A stretch of DNA of 64,000 nt. Origin: Candidatus Kryptoniota bacterium. GTDB lineage: Bacteria > Bacteroidota > Ignavibacteria > Kryptoniales > JAKASW01. Positions 5,111 through 14,580 of this stretch are shown in pieces. The stretch covers positions 1,280 to 65,279 of the forward strand of contig JBJKPC010000003.1 of NCBI GenBank assembly GCA_046706745.1, written 5' to 3'. The notes below the pieces were generated by a model. It worked only from the letters and a program-made list of their open reading frames with translations. It had not been told where the DNA came from and did no database searches. Position 1 is the first letter of the stretch. Each line of letters starts with the position of its first letter. The translations under genes were made by a program, and so were the position numbers.

Positions 5111-5130
5111 TAAACCGACCGGTCGGTTTA
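5111..5130. promoter_or_regulatory. perfect 20-bp palindrome TAAACCGACC|GGTCGGTTTA, candidate TetR operator
   Basis: I verified the reverse complement as identical over all 20 nt. It lies 6 nt downstream of the putative -10 box, the classic position for an autorepressing TetR operator. Confidence 0.55.
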
Positions 5131-5175: not shown

Positions 5176-5781
5176 ATGCCGAGAAGAGTAAGCGTGGAAA
5201 ACATTGCCAAACGGAAGGAACAGATCCTGCGAGCTGCCATAAAAGCCTTTGCCCGCAACGGCCTGAAGGGAACGAGCATGAACGATATCGTACTTGAGTC
5301 CGGCATGAGCAAAGGTGCAATCTATTGGTACTACAACAGCAAGGACGAGATAATTTCCGAGCTGGTCAACTTCTTCTTCGACCCAAAGGAAATGAAAATG
5401 CTGGACCGGTTATTGTCCGAAGGCACTGCGATCGAGAGGATCAAGAAGCTCGCCGATTACACCGCCGAGGCGATGGACAAAATGAAACCTTTCCAGCCCG
5501 TCATCCAGGAATTGTATGTAATCGCGTTCAGGGATGCACAAACGAAGAAGATGGCTACAAAGAGCTTTCAGGAGTCGACATCCCTGCTCGAAAGAATCAT
5601 CGATTACGGAGTGAAGAAAAAGGAATTCAAGCGTGTCGATGCTCATCAGGTATCCGTCTCGATTATCGAGATGATGGAAGGGGCCGCAATGCTCTGGTTC
5701 CTCAACACAAAAGGTTTCGATTATGTCGCACATGTTCGTTTTGGTATAGACTTAATAATAGATGCAATCAAGGTGAATTAA
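5176..5781 (+). CDS. TetR/AcrR-family transcriptional regulator
   Basis: The N-terminal HTH reads RKEQILRAAIKAFARNGLKGTSMNDIVLESGMSKGAIYWYYNSKDEI. GGAGAGG lies 5 nt upstream of ATG 5176 (alternative ATG at 5161). The ORF-track start at 5041 is an upstream extension. Confidence 0.9.
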   Translation: MPRRVSVENIAKRKEQILRAAIKAFARNGLKGTSMNDIVLESGMSKGAIYWYYNSKDEIISELVNFFFDPKEMKMLDRLLSEGTAIERIKKLADYTAEAMDKMKPFQPVIQELYVIAFRDAQTKKMATKSFQESTSLLERIIDYGVKKKEFKRVDAHQVSVSIIEMMEGAAMLWFLNTKGFDYVAHVRFGIDLIIDAIKVN

Positions 5782-6617: not shown

Positions 6618-6636
6618 TGAAGAAAGCTCCGAACCA

Positions 6637-6757
6637 CAAATACCAAATTCCAAACAGAACCCAATTTCGAAACTCCAATCCACAAAGGAAACGAAGCGAG
6701 CTCTGTCTCCGGAAGTCAGGGTTTGTTATTTGGAGCTTGTTTGGAGCTTGGTATTTG
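6637..6757 (+). repeat. long-range inverted repeat in the lolA-like/permease spacer (arms 6637..6656 and 6738..6757)
   Basis: I paired it by hand base by base, giving 18 Watson-Crick pairs, 1 G-U and 1 A-C mismatch over 20 positions. The left arm is CCAA/TCC-rich and the right arm carries the TTGGA repeats. The 3' arm ends 35 nt before the permease A1 start codon. Confidence 0.6.
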
Positions 6758-6792
6758 GAACTTGGAACTTCCCCTGTGCGAGCAACGACTCC

Positions 6793-8022
6793 ATGAAACT
6801 CCTCATTCGAATTGCCTGGCGCAGTCTCTGGCGAAATCGGAGACGCTCCATCCTCGCCATTTCGGCGATCGCATTTGCCGTGGCTTTGGCTATTGTCAGG
6901 CTCGGCTTCGACGACGGCGTATTCGCTCTCTCGCTGAGGACCGCGGTCAGATCATCTACGGGCTATCTGCAGATCCAGAAGACCGGTTACAACGAAAACC
7001 CGACCCTTCAAAAAAGCTTCACCGTAGGTCCACGCATCGAGTCCGTATTGGAGTCCGATCCCGCGCTCAACGGCAGCTCCCCTAGGATCCAGGCGGGCGC
7101 GCTTATCAGCTACCGCAATCAATCACTCGGAGTAATGATAACGGGGGTCGATCCGAAAACGGAGGACCTCATCACCGATTTCCCCAAGAAGGTGATCGAC
7201 GGGAGATTTCTTGCGAGCGATTCGACTCCCGACATCGTGGTTGGATACAAGCTCCTTAGAAATCTTCGGGCTCAAGTCGGCGATTCGGTCGTTGTTCTTG
7301 CGCAGGGATTCGATGGCGTTCTCGACAATATGTTTGTACGAATAGTCGGGACCTTCAGGACCGGTTCCGACGAGTTCGACCGCACCGGTGCTTTCATGAG
7401 CATCCCGGTTCTGCAGAATTTCCTCTCTATGGGCAAGAGGATCAATGCCCTGGCGCTGTCGGTGAAGGATCCCTCGGACGCGGAAAGGATCGCCGGTTCA
7501 CTCGATCCGGTTCTCAAACCACTTGGACTTGTGGCGGTACCCTGGGAAAGACTTCTTCCGCAGCTAAGGCAAACCATGAGTTTCAGCCATGCCGCTCATT
7601 TGATCTTTCTGATACTTTTATTCATAGTGGTCGGCTTCGGTATACTCAACGCCCTGCTGATGTCGGTCACCGAGCGCTTCCGGGAGTTCGGCGTAATGCT
7701 TTCAGTTGGCATGTCCAACCTGAAGCTAGCCGCGACTGTAGCCATAGAAATAGTATTCATGATCCTGATAGGTTTCGTGGTCGGCAACGTCGTCGGAGGG
7801 GGGCTTAATTACTACTTTGCCGTCCATCCGATCGTTATGGGAGGCAACATAGCAGCGTATGTTCACGAGTGGGGGTTTCAGCCGATTGTCCCCTCTTCCC
7901 TTTCTCCCGGAATCTTCGTCACCGCAGGTCTGATCGTGGCCGCAATATCGGTGCTCGCAGCAGTGTATCCGCTGTGGCGTGTAGCAAAGCTGGAGCCGTT
8001 GAAAGGCATAAGGTACACTTGA
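6793..8022 (+). CDS. ABC transporter permease, FtsX/MacB family (paralog A1)
   Basis: The N-terminus MKLLIRIAWRSLWRNRRRS is the FtsX-family signature. A large periplasmic domain follows, then the C-terminal FtsX TM bundle (ILNALLMSVTERFREFGVMLSVGMS). The start is taken at ATG 6793, M22 of the track ORF. Confidence 0.9.
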   Translation: MKLLIRIAWRSLWRNRRRSILAISAIAFAVALAIVRLGFDDGVFALSLRTAVRSSTGYLQIQKTGYNENPTLQKSFTVGPRIESVLESDPALNGSSPRIQAGALISYRNQSLGVMITGVDPKTEDLITDFPKKVIDGRFLASDSTPDIVVGYKLLRNLRAQVGDSVVVLAQGFDGVLDNMFVRIVGTFRTGSDEFDRTGAFMSIPVLQNFLSMGKRINALALSVKDPSDAERIAGSLDPVLKPLGLVAVPWERLLPQLRQTMSFSHAAHLIFLILLFIVVGFGILNALLMSVTERFREFGVMLSVGMSNLKLAATVAIEIVFMILIGFVVGNVVGGGLNYYFAVHPIVMGGNIAAYVHEWGFQPIVPSSLSPGIFVTAGLIVAAISVLAAVYPLWRVAKLEPLKGIRYT

Positions 8023-8250
8023 AATGAAATTCGCAATCATAAATTCTGAACTCGAAACAAATGCTAATTCCAAAATATCATATTCCTGTCCAAACTCGTC
8101 TCTCGGTTGTTTCGGAATTTCGACTTTTGGATTTTGGACTTGTCCCGCTCAATTATCGTATATGGGAATGCGGGATACTGTAAGCCGGAATTTAGGATTT
8201 GGAGTCTCGTGTTTAGGCTTTTTGAATGGGATGACAAGGGGGACTTTAAA
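8023..8250 (+). other. conserved inter-permease spacer element, copy 1 (non-coding; candidate structured leader or internal regulatory element)
   Basis: Over the 231 nt of 8024..8254, which span this spacer, there are 40 mismatches and no indel against 10875..11105 (manual alignment). It is richer in TCC in the 5' half and GGA in the 3' half. It ends in AAGGGGGA-N7-GTG, the start of permease B1. Confidence 0.6.
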
Positions 8251-9480
8251 GTGATCGGCATAATTGCCTGGCGCAACATACTCAGAAACAAACGACGGTC
8301 CCTGATCCTGATCGCGTCCATAGTGGTCGGGGTTGTCGCCCTGGTCCTGACGGAAGGATTTGCCGTCGGGATGCTGCACCAGATGCTGACGAACCAGATC
8401 GGTGCCGATGCGGGATATATCCAGATTCACAGGAACGGGTACCAGTCGGATCCGACGCTCGATAATTCAATGAGCGATCCGCAGGCAATTCGGAAAATAC
8501 TGCGGAAAGAATCCGGCACGCTGAACTACGCCGAGCGTCTCAGGGTGTTCGGACTCGTCAGCAGCGCTTACAACTCGTATGGAGTGTCGATCGTGGGGAT
8601 TATCCCTAAAGAGGAGAAAAAGATCTCTACAATTTCGAAATATGTCCTCAAGGGAGCGTATCTCTCGGGAGAACCGGGGCAGATACTGATAAGCGCTTCC
8701 ATTGCGGAGAAGCTTAGGGTCGGACTCGGCGACAAGATTGTGATCATGGCGTCCCGGGAAGACGGCAGCATCGGCTCAGAGGCATGCAGGATAACGGGCA
8801 TTTACGAAACCTACAACTCAGGTTTCGACCAGTCCCATGTTTATATTCCCATGCAGACTGCCGTACAGATGCTCGATGCGAAAGGACTCGTTTCCGAGTT
8901 CGTAGTGAACCCTCTCGACCCCCAAAAAACCGACCTTGTTGCAGAAACCATCCGGCACGAGGTGGTAGAGTTGCGAGGTCCGAACCACTACGAGGTTCTT
9001 ACCTACGAGCAAATGCTCCCGTTGCTGGTCTCGCAGCTGGCGCTTTACAAGGAGGCTCTTTATCTTATCTCGGTTATCATCGCAATAGCTCTCGTCTTTG
9101 GAATAGTCGACAGTATGATGATGGCAGTTATGGAACGGACACATGAATTCGGCGTGTCGATGGCCATAGGAATGGCAAGTAACAAGATTTTCACAATGGT
9201 GATGACCGAGGCTTTTTTTGTCGCAGTCATAGGAACCGCAATAGGCGTCGCCGCTTCTTATGGAATCATGATCCCACTTTCGCACACAGGCTGGAATCTA
9301 TCGATGTTCTCAGACAGCATGAGATCAGTCGGCGTAGGAAGCGTCATTTATCCCGCGTTCAATGCCTCGGTACTGATGCAAAGCGTCGTCATAATCCCGA
9401 TCGTGACGCTCCTCGGGGCGATTTATCCGGCGTTGAAAGCGATCAAGCTGCAGCCTGTAGACGCGATAAGAGCAGTCTAA
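8251..9480 (+). CDS. ABC transporter permease, FtsX/MacB family (paralog B1)
   Basis: GTG 8251 is preceded by AAGGGGGA. The N-terminus (V/M)IGIIAWRNILRNKRRS is followed by a periplasmic domain and then the FtsX bundle (VDSMMMAVMERTHEFGVSMAIGMA). The track ORF starts further upstream at TTG 8107, inside the spacer. Confidence 0.85.
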   Translation: MIGIIAWRNILRNKRRSLILIASIVVGVVALVLTEGFAVGMLHQMLTNQIGADAGYIQIHRNGYQSDPTLDNSMSDPQAIRKILRKESGTLNYAERLRVFGLVSSAYNSYGVSIVGIIPKEEKKISTISKYVLKGAYLSGEPGQILISASIAEKLRVGLGDKIVIMASREDGSIGSEACRITGIYETYNSGFDQSHVYIPMQTAVQMLDAKGLVSEFVVNPLDPQKTDLVAETIRHEVVELRGPNHYEVLTYEQMLPLLVSQLALYKEALYLISVIIAIALVFGIVDSMMMAVMERTHEFGVSMAIGMASNKIFTMVMTEAFFVAVIGTAIGVAASYGIMIPLSHTGWNLSMFSDSMRSVGVGSVIYPAFNASVLMQSVVIIPIVTLLGAIYPALKAIKLQPVDAIRAV

Positions 9481-9482
9481 AC

Positions 9483-9510
9483 TGGAATATTAGAATTATG
9501 GAATATTGTC
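9483..9510 (+). repeat. 8-nt phased repeat TGGAATAT-TAGAATTA-TGGAATAT starting 3 nt after the B1 stop
   Basis: Read directly. The unit-initial T falls at 9483, 9491 and 9499. A second doublet, TGGATTGA-TGGATCAT, lies at 9585..9600. Confidence 0.7.
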
Positions 9511-9628: not shown

Positions 9629-10873
9629 ATGCTGCTGATTCGACTGGCGTGGCGGAGCTTGTGGCGAAACTGGAGGCGATCGATCATAGCGATGGCGGCG
9701 GTTATTTTTGCCATTGCCTTGTCTATAATTCAACGAGGCATGCAGTATGGAACCTACGCCGAGACGATCAGTACCGCGGTCCGCGCATCAACCGGTTATC
9801 TACAAATCCAAAAAGAGGGCTACAACAAGAGTCCGACGCTCGAGAAGAGTTTCGTTATGACGCCCGCCATAGAGAAAGCCATAGAGGATTCACATTCCAT
9901 CGACGGAAGCTCACCCAGAATCGAAACGGAGGCTCTTCTGAGCTACCATGACCAGTCGCTCGGCGCCATGATAATGGGAGTGGCGCCAAAGACGGAGGGG
10001 GAGGTGACCGATTTCCCGAGCAAAGTAGTGCAGGGACGCTTCCTCTCCGTCGATTCATCGGCCGCCGAAAGCAACGTGGCCCAAATCGTCGTGGGCGACA
10101 AACTACTGCAGAATCTGGGCGCGCAGGTCGGGGACTCCGTGGTTGTGCTCGCACAGGGATTCGACGGAATGCTGGGCAACATGTTTGCCAGGATAGTGGG
10201 CACTTTCAGGACCGGTTCAACCGAGTTCGACCGGATGGGCGTCTTCATGAACATCCATTCTCTCCAGGATTTCCTAAATATGGGAAACAGGATAAATGCG
10301 ATCGCGATATCTGTAAGGGATCCCAATGATATTCAACGACTCTCCGAGAAGCTGAGCAGGACGCTCAAGACCCGGGGACTGGTCGCACTCCCCTGGCAGG
10401 ATCTTCTGCCGCAACTTAAGCAGATGATAGAGCTTGACGACTCAAGCGGCGTGCTATATATAATAATACTTCTTTTCGTCGTGGGCTTCGGAATCCTCAA
10501 TACCGTGCTTATGTCGATCACCGAGCGTTTCAGGGAATACGGCGTAATGCTTTCACTCGGCATGTCGCAGGAAAAGTTAGTGCTGGCCGTTGCGCTGGAA
10601 GTTTTCTTCATGCTGGTAATCGGGTTCATCGTCGGGAACGGCATCGGTGTAGCCGTTAACTACTACTGGGTTCACCATCCTATTGTGATCGGCGGAGATA
10701 TGGCAAAGCTATATCAGGAGTACGGATTCGCTCCCGTCTTCGTGTCTTCCCTTTCGTTCAAGGTATTTCTCGATTCGACTCTGACGATCCTCGGGATCTC
10801 TGTAGTAGCCGCCGTTTACCCGCTCTGGCGTGTCCTGCGTCTGGAACCGCTGAAAGGTATAAGGTACACTTGA
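9629..10873 (+). CDS. ABC transporter permease, FtsX/MacB family (paralog A2)
   Basis: MLLIRLAWRSLWRNWRRS..., with GAAGGAG 6 nt upstream of the ATG. It is co-linear with A1 throughout. Confidence 0.9.
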   Translation: MLLIRLAWRSLWRNWRRSIIAMAAVIFAIALSIIQRGMQYGTYAETISTAVRASTGYLQIQKEGYNKSPTLEKSFVMTPAIEKAIEDSHSIDGSSPRIETEALLSYHDQSLGAMIMGVAPKTEGEVTDFPSKVVQGRFLSVDSSAAESNVAQIVVGDKLLQNLGAQVGDSVVVLAQGFDGMLGNMFARIVGTFRTGSTEFDRMGVFMNIHSLQDFLNMGNRINAIAISVRDPNDIQRLSEKLSRTLKTRGLVALPWQDLLPQLKQMIELDDSSGVLYIIILLFVVGFGILNTVLMSITERFREYGVMLSLGMSQEKLVLAVALEVFFMLVIGFIVGNGIGVAVNYYWVHHPIVIGGDMAKLYQEYGFAPVFVSSLSFKVFLDSTLTILGISVVAAVYPLWRVLRLEPLKGIRYT

Positions 10874-11101
10874 AATGAAATTCGACGTTCTAAATTCGAA
10901 ACTCGAAACAAATATTAATTCCACAATTTCATGTTCCTCTCAAAGCTCATCTCTTAATTGTTTCGGAATTTCGACTCTTGGATTTTTGATTCGTCCCGCT
11001 CAATTATCGTATACGGGCATGCGGCATGCCGCAAGGCGGCATTTAGGATTTAGAGTTTCGTGTTTGGACTCTTTGAACGGGATGAAAAGGGGGACTTTCG
11101 A
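10874..11101 (+). other. conserved inter-permease spacer element, copy 2
   Basis: Same length and boundaries as 8023..8250 (TGA-A-ATG at the 5' end, GTGA overlap at the 3' end), at about 83% nt identity. Confidence 0.6.
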
Positions 11102-12316
11102 GTGATCGGCACAATTGCCTGGCGAAACATACTTCGCAACAGGAGGAGGTCGTTCATCCTCATACTTTCGATCATGGTCGGCGTTATCGCAATGATACTC
11201 ACCGATGCGCTGTCGATAGGCATGGTCCGTCAGATGCTGGTGAACCAGATCGGGGCGGACGCCGGTTATATACAGATACACAAGCTAGGTTATTTTACCG
11301 ACCCTGCACTCAAGAACTCAATCGTCTACACCGCCCCTGTTCGCACCGCACTCGCCCCGGACAGTGCCGGATGCAATATATCCGAACGCCTTAGGACATT
11401 CGGCCTGATCAGCAGTGCCTACAATTCGTCAGGCGTCTCGATCGTCGGTATAATTCCGCATGAAGAAAAACGAGTGACTACGGTGCACAGCTACATTGTG
11501 AATGGAACATATCTCACAAATACTCCCGGTAGTATAATCATCAGTACGACTACGGCGGAGAAATTGAAAGTGGGGCTCGGCGACAAAGTAGTTATTATGG
11601 CCTCACGCATCGGAGGAAGCATCGGGTCGGAGGCATGCCGCGTGGTCGGGCTCTTCGAAACTTTCGATTCCGGATTCGACCAGACGCATGTTTATATTCC
11701 GCTTCAGACCGCACAGCAGATGCTCGGCGCTCCGGGAAGAGTATCCGAATTCGTGGTCAATCCGGTCGATGCCCAGAAGACAGACGCAATTGCTGCCCGC
11801 CTCAGAAACGATCTTCCGTCGGGTTTTGAAGTATTGACTTACAAACAGATGCTTCCACTTCTGGTTATGCAGACCCAGCTGTACGACGAGATGATCTATT
11901 TCTTTTATGCAATCATAGCCATTGCCCTCATCTTCGGCATAATCAACACCATGTTGATGGCAGTGATGGAAAGGACGCACGAGTTGGGAATCGATATGGC
12001 GATCGGCATGTCTCACAGGCGAATTTTCGCGATGATACTGATCGAAGCATTTTACCTGGGTCTCGCCGGCACCGCGGTCGGGCTTGCGATCTCCTTCGCT
12101 ATTTATATTCCGCTCGCACACAGCGGATGGAACCTGGCTGCGTTCTCCGAGAGTCTGAAATCGATAGGAGTCGGGACGACTATTTACCCCGTCCTTACGG
12201 CATCGTCGCTGATCAACACGATAGTGATTATCCCCTTTGCTGCCGTATTGGGGGCGATCTACCCGGCAATACGCGCGATAAAGCTGCAACCGGTTGACGC
12301 GATCAGAGCGAGTTAG
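11102..12316 (+). CDS. ABC transporter permease, FtsX/MacB family (paralog B2)
   Basis: GTG 11102 is homologous to the B1 start. The sequence reads (V/M)IGTIAWRNILRNRRRS...INTMLMAVMERTHELGIDMAIGMS. The track ORF begins at GTG 11060. Confidence 0.85.
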   Translation: MIGTIAWRNILRNRRRSFILILSIMVGVIAMILTDALSIGMVRQMLVNQIGADAGYIQIHKLGYFTDPALKNSIVYTAPVRTALAPDSAGCNISERLRTFGLISSAYNSSGVSIVGIIPHEEKRVTTVHSYIVNGTYLTNTPGSIIISTTTAEKLKVGLGDKVVIMASRIGGSIGSEACRVVGLFETFDSGFDQTHVYIPLQTAQQMLGAPGRVSEFVVNPVDAQKTDAIAARLRNDLPSGFEVLTYKQMLPLLVMQTQLYDEMIYFFYAIIAIALIFGIINTMLMAVMERTHELGIDMAIGMSHRRIFAMILIEAFYLGLAGTAVGLAISFAIYIPLAHSGWNLAAFSESLKSIGVGTTIYPVLTASSLINTIVIIPFAAVLGAIYPAIRAIKLQPVDAIRAS

Positions 12317-12356
12317 TGGAATGATGGAACAATGGAATGTCGGAATAATGGGAACT
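12317..12356 (+). repeat. five phase-locked 8-nt units TGGAATGA-TGGAACAA-TGGAATGT-CGGAATAA-TGGGAACT
   Basis: Read directly. The first unit starts on the base after the B2 stop codon (TAG 12314..12316), and units begin at 12317, 12325, 12333, 12341 and 12349. Confidence 0.8.
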
Positions 12357-12517
12357 CTGATTTTAGGATCGACGGGTTTATACGTTAAAGAGGGATGTCT
12401 CAACCGGTGGTCTCGACTAGTCCGCTTTTTTTATCCGGGAAATAAGCGAGAATTTGAACGCACGAAGCTGAGCGGTAACCGGCCACAGCTGACTGCGAGG
12501 CAAGGAGCAACTTAAGC

Positions 12518-13222
12518 ATGAACTCAAGGAACACAAATGAAATCGTCCGCGTCGAAGGCGTGAGAAAAGTTTATCAAGATAACGGAGTACCGGTGGACGC
12601 ACTGCGCGGGATCAATCTCACCGTTTCATCGGGTGACTTCTCGGTTATTGCTGGTCCGTCGGGGTCGGGAAAGACAACTCTCCTGAACATTGTCGGCACG
12701 CTCGACAAGCCTTCCGAAGGGAAGGTGTTTCTCGATGGAGAGGACGTGGCATCGAAGTCCAGACGAGAACTCGCCGATATAAGGTTGAGGAAGATCGGTT
12801 TCGTCTTCCAGGCCTACAACCTCAACCCCGTTCTGAGCGCTCTGGAAAACGTGGAGTTTACGATGATGCTTCGCGGTATCGATTCCGCGGAGAGGAAACG
12901 TAAGGGTCTTGCCCTGCTCGAGGAGCTCGGCATTGGTGAACTCGCCCACAAGCGCCCAAACGAAATGAGCGGCGGCCAGCAGCAGCGTGTCGCCATCGCG
13001 CGCGCAATCTCCAACGATCCGCGGCTCGTCCTAGCCGACGAGCCTACTGCCAACCTCGACTCCGAAACGTCGGACAGGCTTCTGGACCTCATGGAAAAGC
13101 TCAACCATGAAGACGGGATAACGTTTGTATTTTCGTCCCACGACCCGCAGGTCATCGAGCGTGCGCACAGGCTGCTCATACTTAAAGACGGCCAGATAGT
13201 GACTGACAAGGTCAACGCGTGA
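12518..13222 (+). CDS. ABC transporter ATP-binding protein (LolD/MacB-type)
   Basis: Walker A GPSGSGKTTLLN, signature LSGGQQQRVAIARA, Walker B LVLADEPTANLD and an H-loop SSHD. Confidence 0.95.
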   Translation: MNSRNTNEIVRVEGVRKVYQDNGVPVDALRGINLTVSSGDFSVIAGPSGSGKTTLLNIVGTLDKPSEGKVFLDGEDVASKSRRELADIRLRKIGFVFQAYNLNPVLSALENVEFTMMLRGIDSAERKRKGLALLEELGIGELAHKRPNEMSGGQQQRVAIARAISNDPRLVLADEPTANLDSETSDRLLDLMEKLNHEDGITFVFSSHDPQVIERAHRLLILKDGQIVTDKVNA

Positions 13223-13224
13223 CG

Positions 13225-13300
13225 GATGAAGATGGGATAGTGGAAGAGTGGAATATTGGAACGGTGGAATGATGGATTGCGGGTTTGATGGAGTGCAGGT
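13225..13300 (+). repeat. about nine phase-locked 8-nt units of consensus TGGAANNN
   Basis: GATGAAGA-TGGGATAG-TGGAAGAG-TGGAATAT-TGGAACGG-TGGAATGA-TGGATTGC-GGGTTTGA-TGGAGTGC. The unit-initial T falls at 13233, 41, 49, 57, 65, 73 and 89. The array begins 3 nt after the ATPase stop (TGA 13220..13222). Confidence 0.8.
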
Positions 13301-14580
13301 TGCGCATTTGTCGGCATAAGCAAAAAGAAATAAGGCGGTTGTTTCGCCGTCCATTCCCAGTATGCCGTGATCGCGCGCCGAAGTGCGGCGTTTCGTCACG
13401 CAGGCGAGTTCCGTTCTCCTTTTTCCTTTTCCCGGTTCTCTGTCTCTTCGGAGTCTCCTCCGCCTTCGCGCAAACGCCGCTTTTCCCTGGAACCGAACTG
13501 AATTTCTCCGGCTATGTCATGGAAATGCCGGTGTATGAAAACATCCAACAGACGTTGGCCCAGCTGACAAACACATCGAGTTCCGGATTTGAGAATCTCG
13601 CCAGATTAAGACTCCGGCCAACCCTGCACATCGGCGACAATACGAAGATTGGTCTCGAATACGAGATCGACGGACTGTATCACTCCGAGAATGTCTCATT
13701 CGGTTTGATCGCAACGACTCCCCTACGGCAGGTAGTCAGCCTGCGCTGGAGCCCTGTCGACACCAGACATGTAACAGTTTCCGACTATGTCGACAGACTC
13801 TACCTTGACGAGGAATTCTCTTTCGGAAAGTTTGTCCTCGGAAGACAACGTATAAGCTGGGGAGTCGGGCGCGTATGGCAGCCGACCGATATTTTCAATC
13901 CAATAAATCCCGCCAACTTCGGCAAAATCGAAAAAGACGGAGCCGACGCTGCCTCGATGAAATTCTACCTCGGACAGCTCACCGATCTTCAACTTGTCTA
14001 CAATGCGGAATATCATTTCAGCTCTTCGAATTACGCAGCAAGATTCAGGACCAATGTCTTGGGATACGATCTGGCCGTCCTGGGCGGATCGGTTGACCGG
14101 AGGCTCATCGGTGGAGGAGATTTTGCAGGCAATGTCTGGACCGCAGGGATACGTGGGGAAGCGCTTATATCGCAGGATCCTTCGAAGTCGCACGACTATT
14201 ACATAAGATGGATACTAGGAATGGATTACCAGTTCACGGACAAACTCTATGCACTATTCGAGTACTATCACAACGGACAGGGTACTCTCAACCGTTTTGC
14301 ATACGATTTAACCGGCCTTTATGAAGGAAGGATCCTCAACGTCGCGAAAGATTACCTCGCGTTGAGCGGGACGTACCAGCTGACGTCCCTGGTTACCGTG
14401 ATGCTGTCATCCATTTCAAATTTCAATGACGGAAGCGGTTATATCTCCGGTACCGTCAGCTATTCGGCAAGCGACAACGCGTCGCTTGCTATCGGTTCGC
14501 TTTATGCTTTCGGAAAAACATTCACCGAATACTGGTACTATCCTCAGGCCTACTACATAAAACTTGAAACTTATTTCTGA
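13288..14580 (+). CDS. outer-membrane beta-barrel (porin-like) protein of unknown function
   Basis: A signal-like segment RRRVPFSFFLFPVLCLFGVSSAFAQ is followed by alternating beta-strand-like sequence, a GRQRISWGVGRVWQPTDIFNPINP motif and a C-terminus ...YYIKLETYF (terminal Phe). The start codon is uncertain (ATG 13288 or TTG 13339), and the N-terminal extension overlaps the repeat array. Confidence 0.7.
   Translation: MECRLRICRHKQKEIRRLFRRPFPVCRDRAPKCGVSSRRRVPFSFFLFPVLCLFGVSSAFAQTPLFPGTELNFSGYVMEMPVYENIQQTLAQLTNTSSSGFENLARLRLRPTLHIGDNTKIGLEYEIDGLYHSENVSFGLIATTPLRQVVSLRWSPVDTRHVTVSDYVDRLYLDEEFSFGKFVLGRQRISWGVGRVWQPTDIFNPINPANFGKIEKDGADAASMKFYLGQLTDLQLVYNAEYHFSSSNYAARFRTNVLGYDLAVLGGSVDRRLIGGGDFAGNVWTAGIRGEALISQDPSKSHDYYIRWILGMDYQFTDKLYALFEYYHNGQGTLNRFAYDLTGLYEGRILNVAKDYLALSGTYQLTSLVTVMLSSISNFNDGSGYISGTVSYSASDNASLAIGSLYAFGKTFTEYWYYPQAYYIKLETYF

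Follow-up and report, generated by a model that had tools for sequence, protein, structure and literature searches.

The exporter operon and its octamer arrays

The stretch of DNA analysed here (the window; 64 kb of a Candidatus Kryptoniota genome) carries an exporter operon, in which a TetR-family gene is followed by genes for a LolA-like protein, four MacB/FtsX-type permeases, an ABC ATPase and a porin-like outer-membrane beta-barrel protein (Table 1). The AlphaFold model of the last of these (pLDDT 63) consists entirely of beta structure and has OmpC/OmpF/MOMP porins as its matches, which agrees with the outer-membrane barrel proposed in an initial annotation of this DNA. The perfect palindrome ahead of the TetR gene is the likely operator of the whole exporter operon; TetR is the first gene in the related genome L002 as well. 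Spacers 8023-8106 and 10874-11059 are clearly homologous, the permease pair having been duplicated in tandem along with its intergenic hairpin, and degenerate GGA units (CGGAATTT and AGGATTTG) lie upstream of the permease 2 start. The spacer between the LolA-like gene and permease 1 (6620-6790) forms a long hairpin (fold z -2.8) with a CCAAA/ACTCCA-rich 5' arm and TTTGGAG/TTGGAAC repeats in the 3' arm (Tandem Repeats Finder periods 7, 11 and 14), an arm order opposite to that of the metagenomic octamer hairpins described below.

Table 1. Features of the exporter operon and of its octamer arrays (positions in the window)
Feature	Position	Strand	Sequence or remark
Perfect 18-bp palindrome	5112-5129	+	AAACCGACCGGTCGGTTT; operon start, precedes TetR gene
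TetR-family repressor gene	5176-5781	+	operon start
Four MacB/FtsX-type permease genes	6793-8022, 8107-9480, 9629-10873, 11060-12316	+	second pair duplicates first
Weak sister array	9483-9506	+	TGGAATAT TAGAATTA TGGAATAT; 2 nt past permease 2 stop TAA (9478-9480)
Sister array	12317-12356	+	TGGAATGA TGGAACAA TGGAATGT CGGAATAA TGGGAACT; abuts permease 4 stop TAG (12314-12316)
63-codon ORF	12324-12515	+	starts in the 12317 array (TGATG overlap), ends 2 nt before ATPase ATG
Predicted ATPase ribosome-binding site	12504-12520	+	GGAG 12504-12507, 10-nt spacer, ATG 12518-12520
ABC ATPase gene	12518-13222	+	Pfam ABC_tran
ABC ATPase stop TGA	13220-13222	+	ends the ATPase gene; array begins 2 nt downstream
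Array of 8-nt units	13225-13296	+	nine units, seven with TGG(A/G) core; consensus TGGAATNN
Unit 1	13225		GATGAAGA; degenerate
Unit 2	13233		TGGGATAG; near variant of TGGA(A/T) type
Unit 3	13241		TGGAAGAG
Unit 4	13249		TGGAATAT
Unit 5	13257		TGGAACGG
Unit 6	13265		TGGAATGA
Unit 7	13273		TGGATTGC
Unit 8	13281		GGGTTTGA; degenerate
Unit 9	13289		TGGAGTGC; near variant of TGGA(A/T) type
Porin-like outer-membrane beta-barrel gene	13285-14580	+	431-codon ORF, no Pfam match
Pyrimidine (TTCC)-rich stretch	13396-13445	+	encodes signal-peptide core; tested as partner arm of the array

The spacer between the ATPase and barrel genes contains an array of short units, arranged head to tail in non-coding DNA as in simple sequence repeats, and the phase is exactly 8 across all nine of them. 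Five units are of the TGGA(A/T) type and two have TGGG or TGGAG instead; the first and the eighth are degenerate. The letters and the phase reported in the initial annotation match the sequence exactly; its count of nine holds for the 8-nt steps, but with two of them degenerate six to seven is the fair count of units. A three-unit pattern (TGGAANNNTGGAANNNTGGA, up to 2 mismatches) was matched 11 times in the 64-kb window versus 0.46 expected, and eight of these matches lie in three spacers of one operon. The density of TGGA over the whole window peaks at 13210-13289, and chains of four or more phased GGA units begin at just two places, 12317 and 13241, each on the + strand. Tandem Repeats Finder assigned to the array a period of 8 and a stronger period of 16. 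As first noted, similar arrays in the window are confined to this operon, where they are represented by the two sister arrays, one of them weak, past permeases 4 and 2.

The three array spacers of the window fold no better than their dinucleotide shuffles (z -0.9, +1.4 and -0.3), and the whole barrel junction gives z +0.86 in the window and an average of ~0 over 18 genomes. The minimum free energy structure of the window junction pairs the array with the TTCC-rich region that encodes the signal-peptide core. Against shuffled partners, this duplex gains nothing in the window (z -0.7) and stands out only in L002 (z -2.2), L004 (z -3.0) and L015 (z -1.9). For the arrays between permease 4 and the ATPase, which are better conserved, no pairing partner was found. 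The window array was rejected as a hairpin arm, since neither spacer folds nor downstream duplexes exceed the shuffles, and it is predicted to be unpaired and single-stranded.

No sigma-70-like promoter or intrinsic terminator was found in the three array spacers of the window, and transcriptional control of the operon is not attributed to the arrays, because TetR and the palindrome supply it at the operon start. Rfam searches (gathering and permissive thresholds for the window, gathering threshold for 18 metagenome loci) returned one chance-level miRNA match and two tRNAs, and a literature search by repeat sequence retrieved unrelated primers only. With no Rfam family or paper on the array found, the view that this is not a described arrangement stands.

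Arrays at the cistron junctions of related genomes

Homologues of the barrel protein were detected in the hundreds, in MAGs labelled Kryptoniota, Kryptonia or Bacteroidota, and 80 genome loci were taken for comparison. The window and these loci (1.25 Mb) contain phased GGA triplets at period 8 in 18 cases on the operon sense strand and in 2 cases on the other strand; the remaining periods between 5 and 11 yielded 0-5 arrays. As a control, the 369 kb of DNA from 20 Kryptoniota genomes were scanned for each of the 64 trinucleotides at every period from 5 to 12. The sole period-8 signal was that of GGA (13 arrays) with the overlapping TGG (7) and GAA (4), none of them antisense; the scan otherwise picked up only coding repeats (period 12) and an A-run (period 7).

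With genes placed by tblastn, every Kryptoniota array proved to be located at a cistron junction of this operon: (i) between permease 4 and the ATPase in 13 of 19 genomes, (ii) between the ATPase and the barrel in 6 of 19 (the window, L002, L004, L011, L015 and L018), and (iii) between permeases 2 and 3 in two genomes. The number of units per array varies from 3 to 9 among species, and the arrays are kept at the same junctions among species-level genomes down to 64% barrel identity. No arrays were found in ~220 kb of DNA flanking the operon in the Kryptoniota loci, and none at the matching junctions of the orthologous operons of Ignavibacteria, Melioribacter and Calditrichia (L020-L030). C-type (antisense) arrays are likewise absent from the Kryptoniota loci. 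In L038, L049 and L058, phased chains are present elsewhere in the locus, outside these junctions.

The array at 13225 is a real, evolutionarily conserved and unannotated feature. The initial description of a phase-locked, non-coding, sense-strand element of a polycistronic operon was borne out across the relatives (13 sense versus 0 antisense arrays), as was the conservation in orthologous operons by which it had proposed to judge the element, in this case within Kryptoniota and at the two junctions next to the ATPase. A similar density on the antisense strand or elsewhere, which had been named as the mark of a plain microsatellite, was not observed in these strands and flanks.

A profile of the unit was built from 82 units of 17 Kryptoniota arrays (T76 G98 G100 A95 (A55 T33 G11) T79 (A48 G28) (A56 T21), in %; consensus TGGAATAA). 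Positions 5, 7 and 8 are at background, while the core and the phase are kept. Identity at these three positions is 0.43 between neighbouring units and 0.39 between units of different arrays, so that the units are not near-identical, as they are in repeats produced by recent slippage. Since neighbours are no more alike than units of different arrays, the comparison argues for arrays that are old rather than recently slipped, with core and phase probably under purifying selection; a core and phase retained while positions 5, 7 and 8 drifted speak against a plain microsatellite.

Translation signals within and around the arrays

Almost every junction array begins 0-25 nt after the native conserved stop codon of the upstream gene. 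L001 is an exception: its array adjoins the ATPase start and is separated from the stop by ~120 nt. Where the spacer is short (L001, L003, L009, L012, L015 and L017), the array fills the gap and its last unit gives the ATPase ATG, whereas array and gene are set apart in long spacers by unrelated insertions (100-400 nt). The long spacers of L002 (2584-2858), L004 (~7960-8140) and L018 (3358-3492) contain small GC-rich hairpins, e.g., GGGACGGTGTCCC and CCCTTCAGGGG, which look like inserted miniature elements splitting arrays from genes.

The ATPase start is preceded by GGAG at a distance of exactly 10 nt in 16 of the 19 Kryptoniota genomes. The consensus of this start site, ATGGAGTA ATGGAATA ATGGA, equals three phased units, and therefore the 8-nt period mirrors the Shine-Dalgarno (SD)-to-start geometry of the operon itself. 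The unit consensus (ATGGAATA) matches this ribosome-binding geometry, each NUG of an array having a GGA 10 nt upstream, and spells ATG-GAA-TAA with TAATG/TGATG stop-start overlaps. Overlaps of this kind are found in the window at 13219-22 (GTGA), 13238-42 (TAGTG), 13270-74 and 13286-90 (both TGATG), and stops and restarts thus overlap in the 13225 array as they do at sites of termination-reinitiation.

The array also reaches the start region of the barrel gene, as had been pointed out: ATG 13288 lies in units 8/9, and the GGAG of the array (13290-13293) is placed 6 nt before TTG 13300. Together with TTG 13285 and TTG 13339 these are the in-frame candidate starts of the barrel, whose signal-peptide core lies at ~13396-13470 (AFA|Q); the deposited protein (353 aa) begins at an internal Met and lacks the signal peptide. 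In relatives, gene callers start the barrel inside the arrays (MECWNNG..., MDKWIRK...; proteins P0001-P0015). Barrel N-termini with PFS(L/V)F-like repeats, for which the coding DNA is TTCC-rich, occur mainly in loci with an upstream array (including L008, in which the array is degenerate).

We further searched the junctions for ORF chains, i.e., ORFs linked by stop-start gaps of -4 to +10 nt, with the expectation taken from shuffled spacers. Such chains connect the permease 4 stop with the ATPase start in 11 of 19 genomes versus 2.9 expected (P ~7e-6) and cross the barrel junction in 13 of 19 versus 8.7 expected (P 0.007); both P values are optimistic, because the genomes are related. The window's own chain at the barrel junction (GTG 13219, TGA 13272, TTG 13277, TGATG 13286-90) is unremarkable (shuffle p 0.58). 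Of the chains from permease 4 to the ATPase, that of L006 is broken, whereas its close relative L005 has a complete one. The 201-nt spacer between permease 4 and the ATPase is spanned in the window by the 63-codon ORF, which counts among these chains, and comparable but unrelated bridging ORFs are present in L001, L005, L007, L014 and L018. This ORF was rejected as a real small protein, as the spacer ORFs of the relatives differ in length and lack evident sequence similarity.

Start and stop codons follow the unit profile. A stop is present in ~35% of units (29 of 82, versus a fraction of ~0.38 expected from the profile), and no stop enrichment beyond the profile was found in the 82 Kryptoniota units; ATG occurs in about half. 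Among the metagenome matches listed (see below), a preceding T-R does not raise the frequency of A at position 8. C is tolerated most at position 8, and a start codon at every unit is therefore not enforced. The idea that every unit is an SD sequence was also rejected, since units with G at position 5 are few (11%), the one located 10 nt ahead of the true start being the exception. The other units read GGAA or GGAU, and for pairing with the anti-SD, AGGA would be a better match than UGGA.

Candidate functions of the arrays

The interpretation that we tentatively prefer is that the arrays form a translational-coupling bridge made of iterated initiation modules, the copy between the ATPase and the barrel being one member of a small family of RNA arrays. 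Each 8-nt unit (A|UGGAAUA) would correspond to a single step in the module by which this operon initiates translation, in which (i) U6-R7-A8-U1-G2 would yield the UAAUG/UGAUG stop-start overlap, and (ii) G2-G3-A4 would act as an SD-like GGA, located 10 nt before the NUG two units on, as in the authentic ATPase spacing. An array situated near the upstream stop, without C or structure, would retain or recapture ribosomes that have just terminated and hand them to the next start via standby binding, a relay through very short ORFs, or both. Coupling would thereby span spacers too long for direct termination-reinitiation, and the output of ATPase and barrel would be set relative to the four permeases. 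Both the engagement of ribosomes on the array and any effect on expression are what we infer from these signals.

Coupling by termination-reinitiation is established for overlapping stop and start codons such as ATGA, TGATG and TAATG (Huber et al., PMC6728339, PMC10666635). The arrays share with it the TAATG/TGATG overlaps, an SD-like element before the restart codon and the location between cistrons of one complex. They differ in that known coupling uses a single overlap within less than ~20 nt, whereas the arrays would pass ribosomes along serial overlaps and short ORFs over 27-423 nt, an arrangement not known from earlier descriptions. Direct termination-reinitiation fails beyond ~20 nt (PMC10666635), which would give a bridge its purpose. 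The bridge is weakened by the fact that stops and ATGs occur only as the profile predicts, with no extra co-occurrence, by the tolerance of C at position 8, by units that read GGAA or GGAU, by the unremarkable ORF chain of the window array and the broken one of L006, and by the metagenome arrays, which often form hairpins or follow a last gene, leaving coupling without a target. The suggestion that the array could gate translation of the barrel gene remains plausible, but the evidence points to a hand-over of ribosomes and not to sponge-like sequestration.

The nearest described counterparts are the TAACTGA heptamers and the STRR heptamers of cyanobacteria. TAACTGA direct repeats are intergenic elements of Beggiatoaceae, cyanobacteria and some Bacteroidetes; they are forward-oriented and unstructured, adjoin start codons, and are suspected of an as yet unproven translational role, with S1, Csp or CsrA put forward as readers (MacGregor, 2015, PMC4679880). 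Like the Kryptoniota arrays, they place stops in every frame, are predicted to form no RNA structure and have a scattered phylogenetic distribution. Their period is 7 and their units are identical, whereas the Kryptoniota arrays have a period of 8 and are degenerate at three positions around the core. TAACTGA occupies ~170 sites per genome, whereas the Kryptoniota arrays are tied to an upstream stop and confined to one operon, and a two-armed hairpin form exists for octamers elsewhere, in metagenomes.

The main rival to the bridge, possible although we judge it less probable, is a periodic mRNA platform for an oligomeric or cooperative RNA-binding protein (TRAP/HutP-like, or CsrA-like as in the initial annotation) that would control translation or stability at the junctions. 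Of the eight positions in a unit, six to seven show constraint, among them U1 and U6, which SD pairing does not require, and exact phase, variable spacer positions, a tract predicted to be single-stranded and operon-specific occurrence (as for TRAP, HutP or PyrR targets) fit such a platform. The recurrence of the core UGGA(A/G/U)U(A/G) in unrelated lineages suggests a conserved reader. TRAP binds 11 G/UAG triplets separated by 2-3 nt, and HutP recognises UAG at a 7-nt period. Their targets resemble the arrays in being single-stranded, operon-specific, sense-strand tracts in which a short core recurs at a fixed interval with free spacers, but the arrays have a UGGAWU core, a period of 8 and a variable copy number. 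TRAP and HutP targets lie in a 5' leader, whereas the arrays are intercistronic, with no terminator/antiterminator or cognate protein found; their last units cover candidate start signals. Against a platform stand also the inconstant number of units between species and the gene content of the operon, which encodes only TetR, the LolA-like protein, permeases, ATPase and barrel, and hence offers no candidate protein. Moreover, stop, start and SD signals also explain all conserved positions.

The CsrA/RsmA variant of this platform, raised in the initial annotation, is not supported. CsrA sites have an A(N)GGA or ARGGAUG context, are presented in hairpin loops and are irregularly spaced. The array shares with such sites and with the sponges CsrB and RsmY/Z the presence of many GGAs on one RNA, seven of its units having GGA or GGG predicted to be single-stranded, and of one GGA near a ribosome-binding site. 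In contrast to them, it presents a U-GGA-W-U context (U before GGA in 76% and two bases after it in 79%) in an unstructured tract with exact 8-nt phasing, and no GGA is located in a hairpin loop. The accompanying proposal to look for csrA was followed with tblastn, which detected no CsrA, Hfq, TRAP or MetJ homologue in the window or the 80 comparison loci, which sample only a small fraction of each genome. No comparable motif for Bacteroides RbpB was found in the literature.

A search of the metagenome collection with a four-unit pattern retrieved at least 120 stretches (GC 0.35-0.63). Among the matches listed, unbiased positions of the units have the same profile as in Kryptoniota, and only 4 of 118 arrays are homogeneous. 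The elements are intergenic, mostly between co-directional genes and near stop codons, and are often hairpin-forming or placed after the last gene. Among the matches listed, ~40 arrays are followed within 250 nt by a complementary array, which creates long imperfect hairpins of the form (TGGAGTNN)n, loop, (NNACTCCA)n. The G-type arm is always 5' among these matches, the reverse order never being met. Examples from loci L081-L160 include L153 (1468-1545), L090 (1840-2019 and 6364-6502) and L155 (1169-1246), the last lying between pstC and pstA of a Verrucomicrobiota MAG. Octamer-built hairpins beside stop codons are thus widespread in uncultured bacteria, and no Rfam family reached the gathering score in the 18 loci scanned. 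A one-armed array of four units (TGGAGTAG TGGAGTAA TGGATGAA TGGAACCT) is present in L058 (3079-3117, - strand), a MAG labelled Deltaproteobacteria, and begins one degenerate unit past the TGA stop of an unrelated gene. The matches listed for viral contigs (L201-L280) are mostly perfect TGGAnTnn microsatellites (TGGATTGA, TGGATTTT, TGGAATCA and others), many of them from giant-virus MAGs, and appear separate from the heterogeneous bacterial arrays.

A broader and more speculative reading, which we consider doubtful, sees in the UGGA(A/G/U)U(A/G)N arrays the cis-code of a post-stop-codon system that would be widespread among PVC and FCB bacteria and has not been described before. Such a code would be read by the ribosome (standby or relay) or by an RNA-binding factor, the one-armed form bridging cistrons and the two-armed hairpin closing or insulating them.

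It is unlikely that the Kryptoniota arrays are arms or decayed copies of the metagenome octamer hairpin, i.e., of a REP/REPIN-like, mRNA-stabilising or terminating stem-loop just past stops. The shared units, the position of the hairpins near gene 3' ends, the pstC-pstA example and the three barrel-junction duplexes that beat shuffles lend this reading some weight. The metagenome octamers resemble REP/BIME/REPIN elements as imperfect palindromes just past stops of mostly co-directional genes, including ABC-transporter operons, although their arms are tandem octamers and REP arms are not. The window arrays, unlike REP, are one-armed and not dispersed. No stem-loop palindrome was found at the barrel junction of the window, where both the duplex and the junction fold are at the level of shuffles, as is the average over the 18 junctions, and no copy outside the operon was found in the ~220 kb of flanks. 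The partnerless permease 4-ATPase arrays, the missing antisense arm in Kryptoniota loci and spacers devoid of a terminator-like site likewise count against it.

Similarly improbable is a neutral 8-nt microsatellite, seeded by an internally periodic ribosome-binding site (GGAGTAATGGA) and grown by replication slippage. The authentic ATPase initiation region, itself periodic at 8 nt, could have served as the seed; the unit number varies between species, perfect TGGAnTnn microsatellites are common in viral and giant-virus contigs, and arrays in long spacers may be relics parted from a ribosome-binding site by insertions. Nevertheless, heterogeneous units keep core and phase, although neutral decay would erode the core equally fast, the strand bias is complete, the same junction is occupied in 13 of 19 species-level genomes with barrels as little as 64% identical, and homogeneous arrays are as rare as stated above among the metagenome matches listed.

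Least probable by far is a DNA operator consisting of tandem 8-bp sites for a ribbon-helix-helix type protein acting on transcription of the operon. MetJ metboxes and the tetramer (ACTC) boxes of ParG are tandem 8-bp DNA operators, an established arrangement which the array resembles in its unit length, and therefore period 8 alone is no bar to DNA binding, contrary to what had been assumed at the outset. The reverse complement of the commonest metagenome unit listed is ACTCCANN, with an ACTC box and a 4-bp spacer. Unlike these operators, the arrays are intra-operonic, right after stops, always in sense orientation in Kryptoniota and without a promoter-like site in the spacers; some fill a 27-45 nt spacer that leaves no promoter room, the operon has its control by TetR and palindrome, and tblastn revealed no MetJ-like gene in the loci searched. 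Position, strand and the lack of a promoter favour an RNA over a DNA reading.

The Kryptoniota arrays represent an undescribed variant of intergenic repeat arrays. As a translational-coupling bridge, the array would offer a tangible and readily tested model of a ribosome relay or standby platform, by which operons with long spacers might keep the stoichiometry of their subunits. If this proves true, it would provide a function for short intergenic tandem repeats, such as TAACTGA and STRR, that have been without one for decades.
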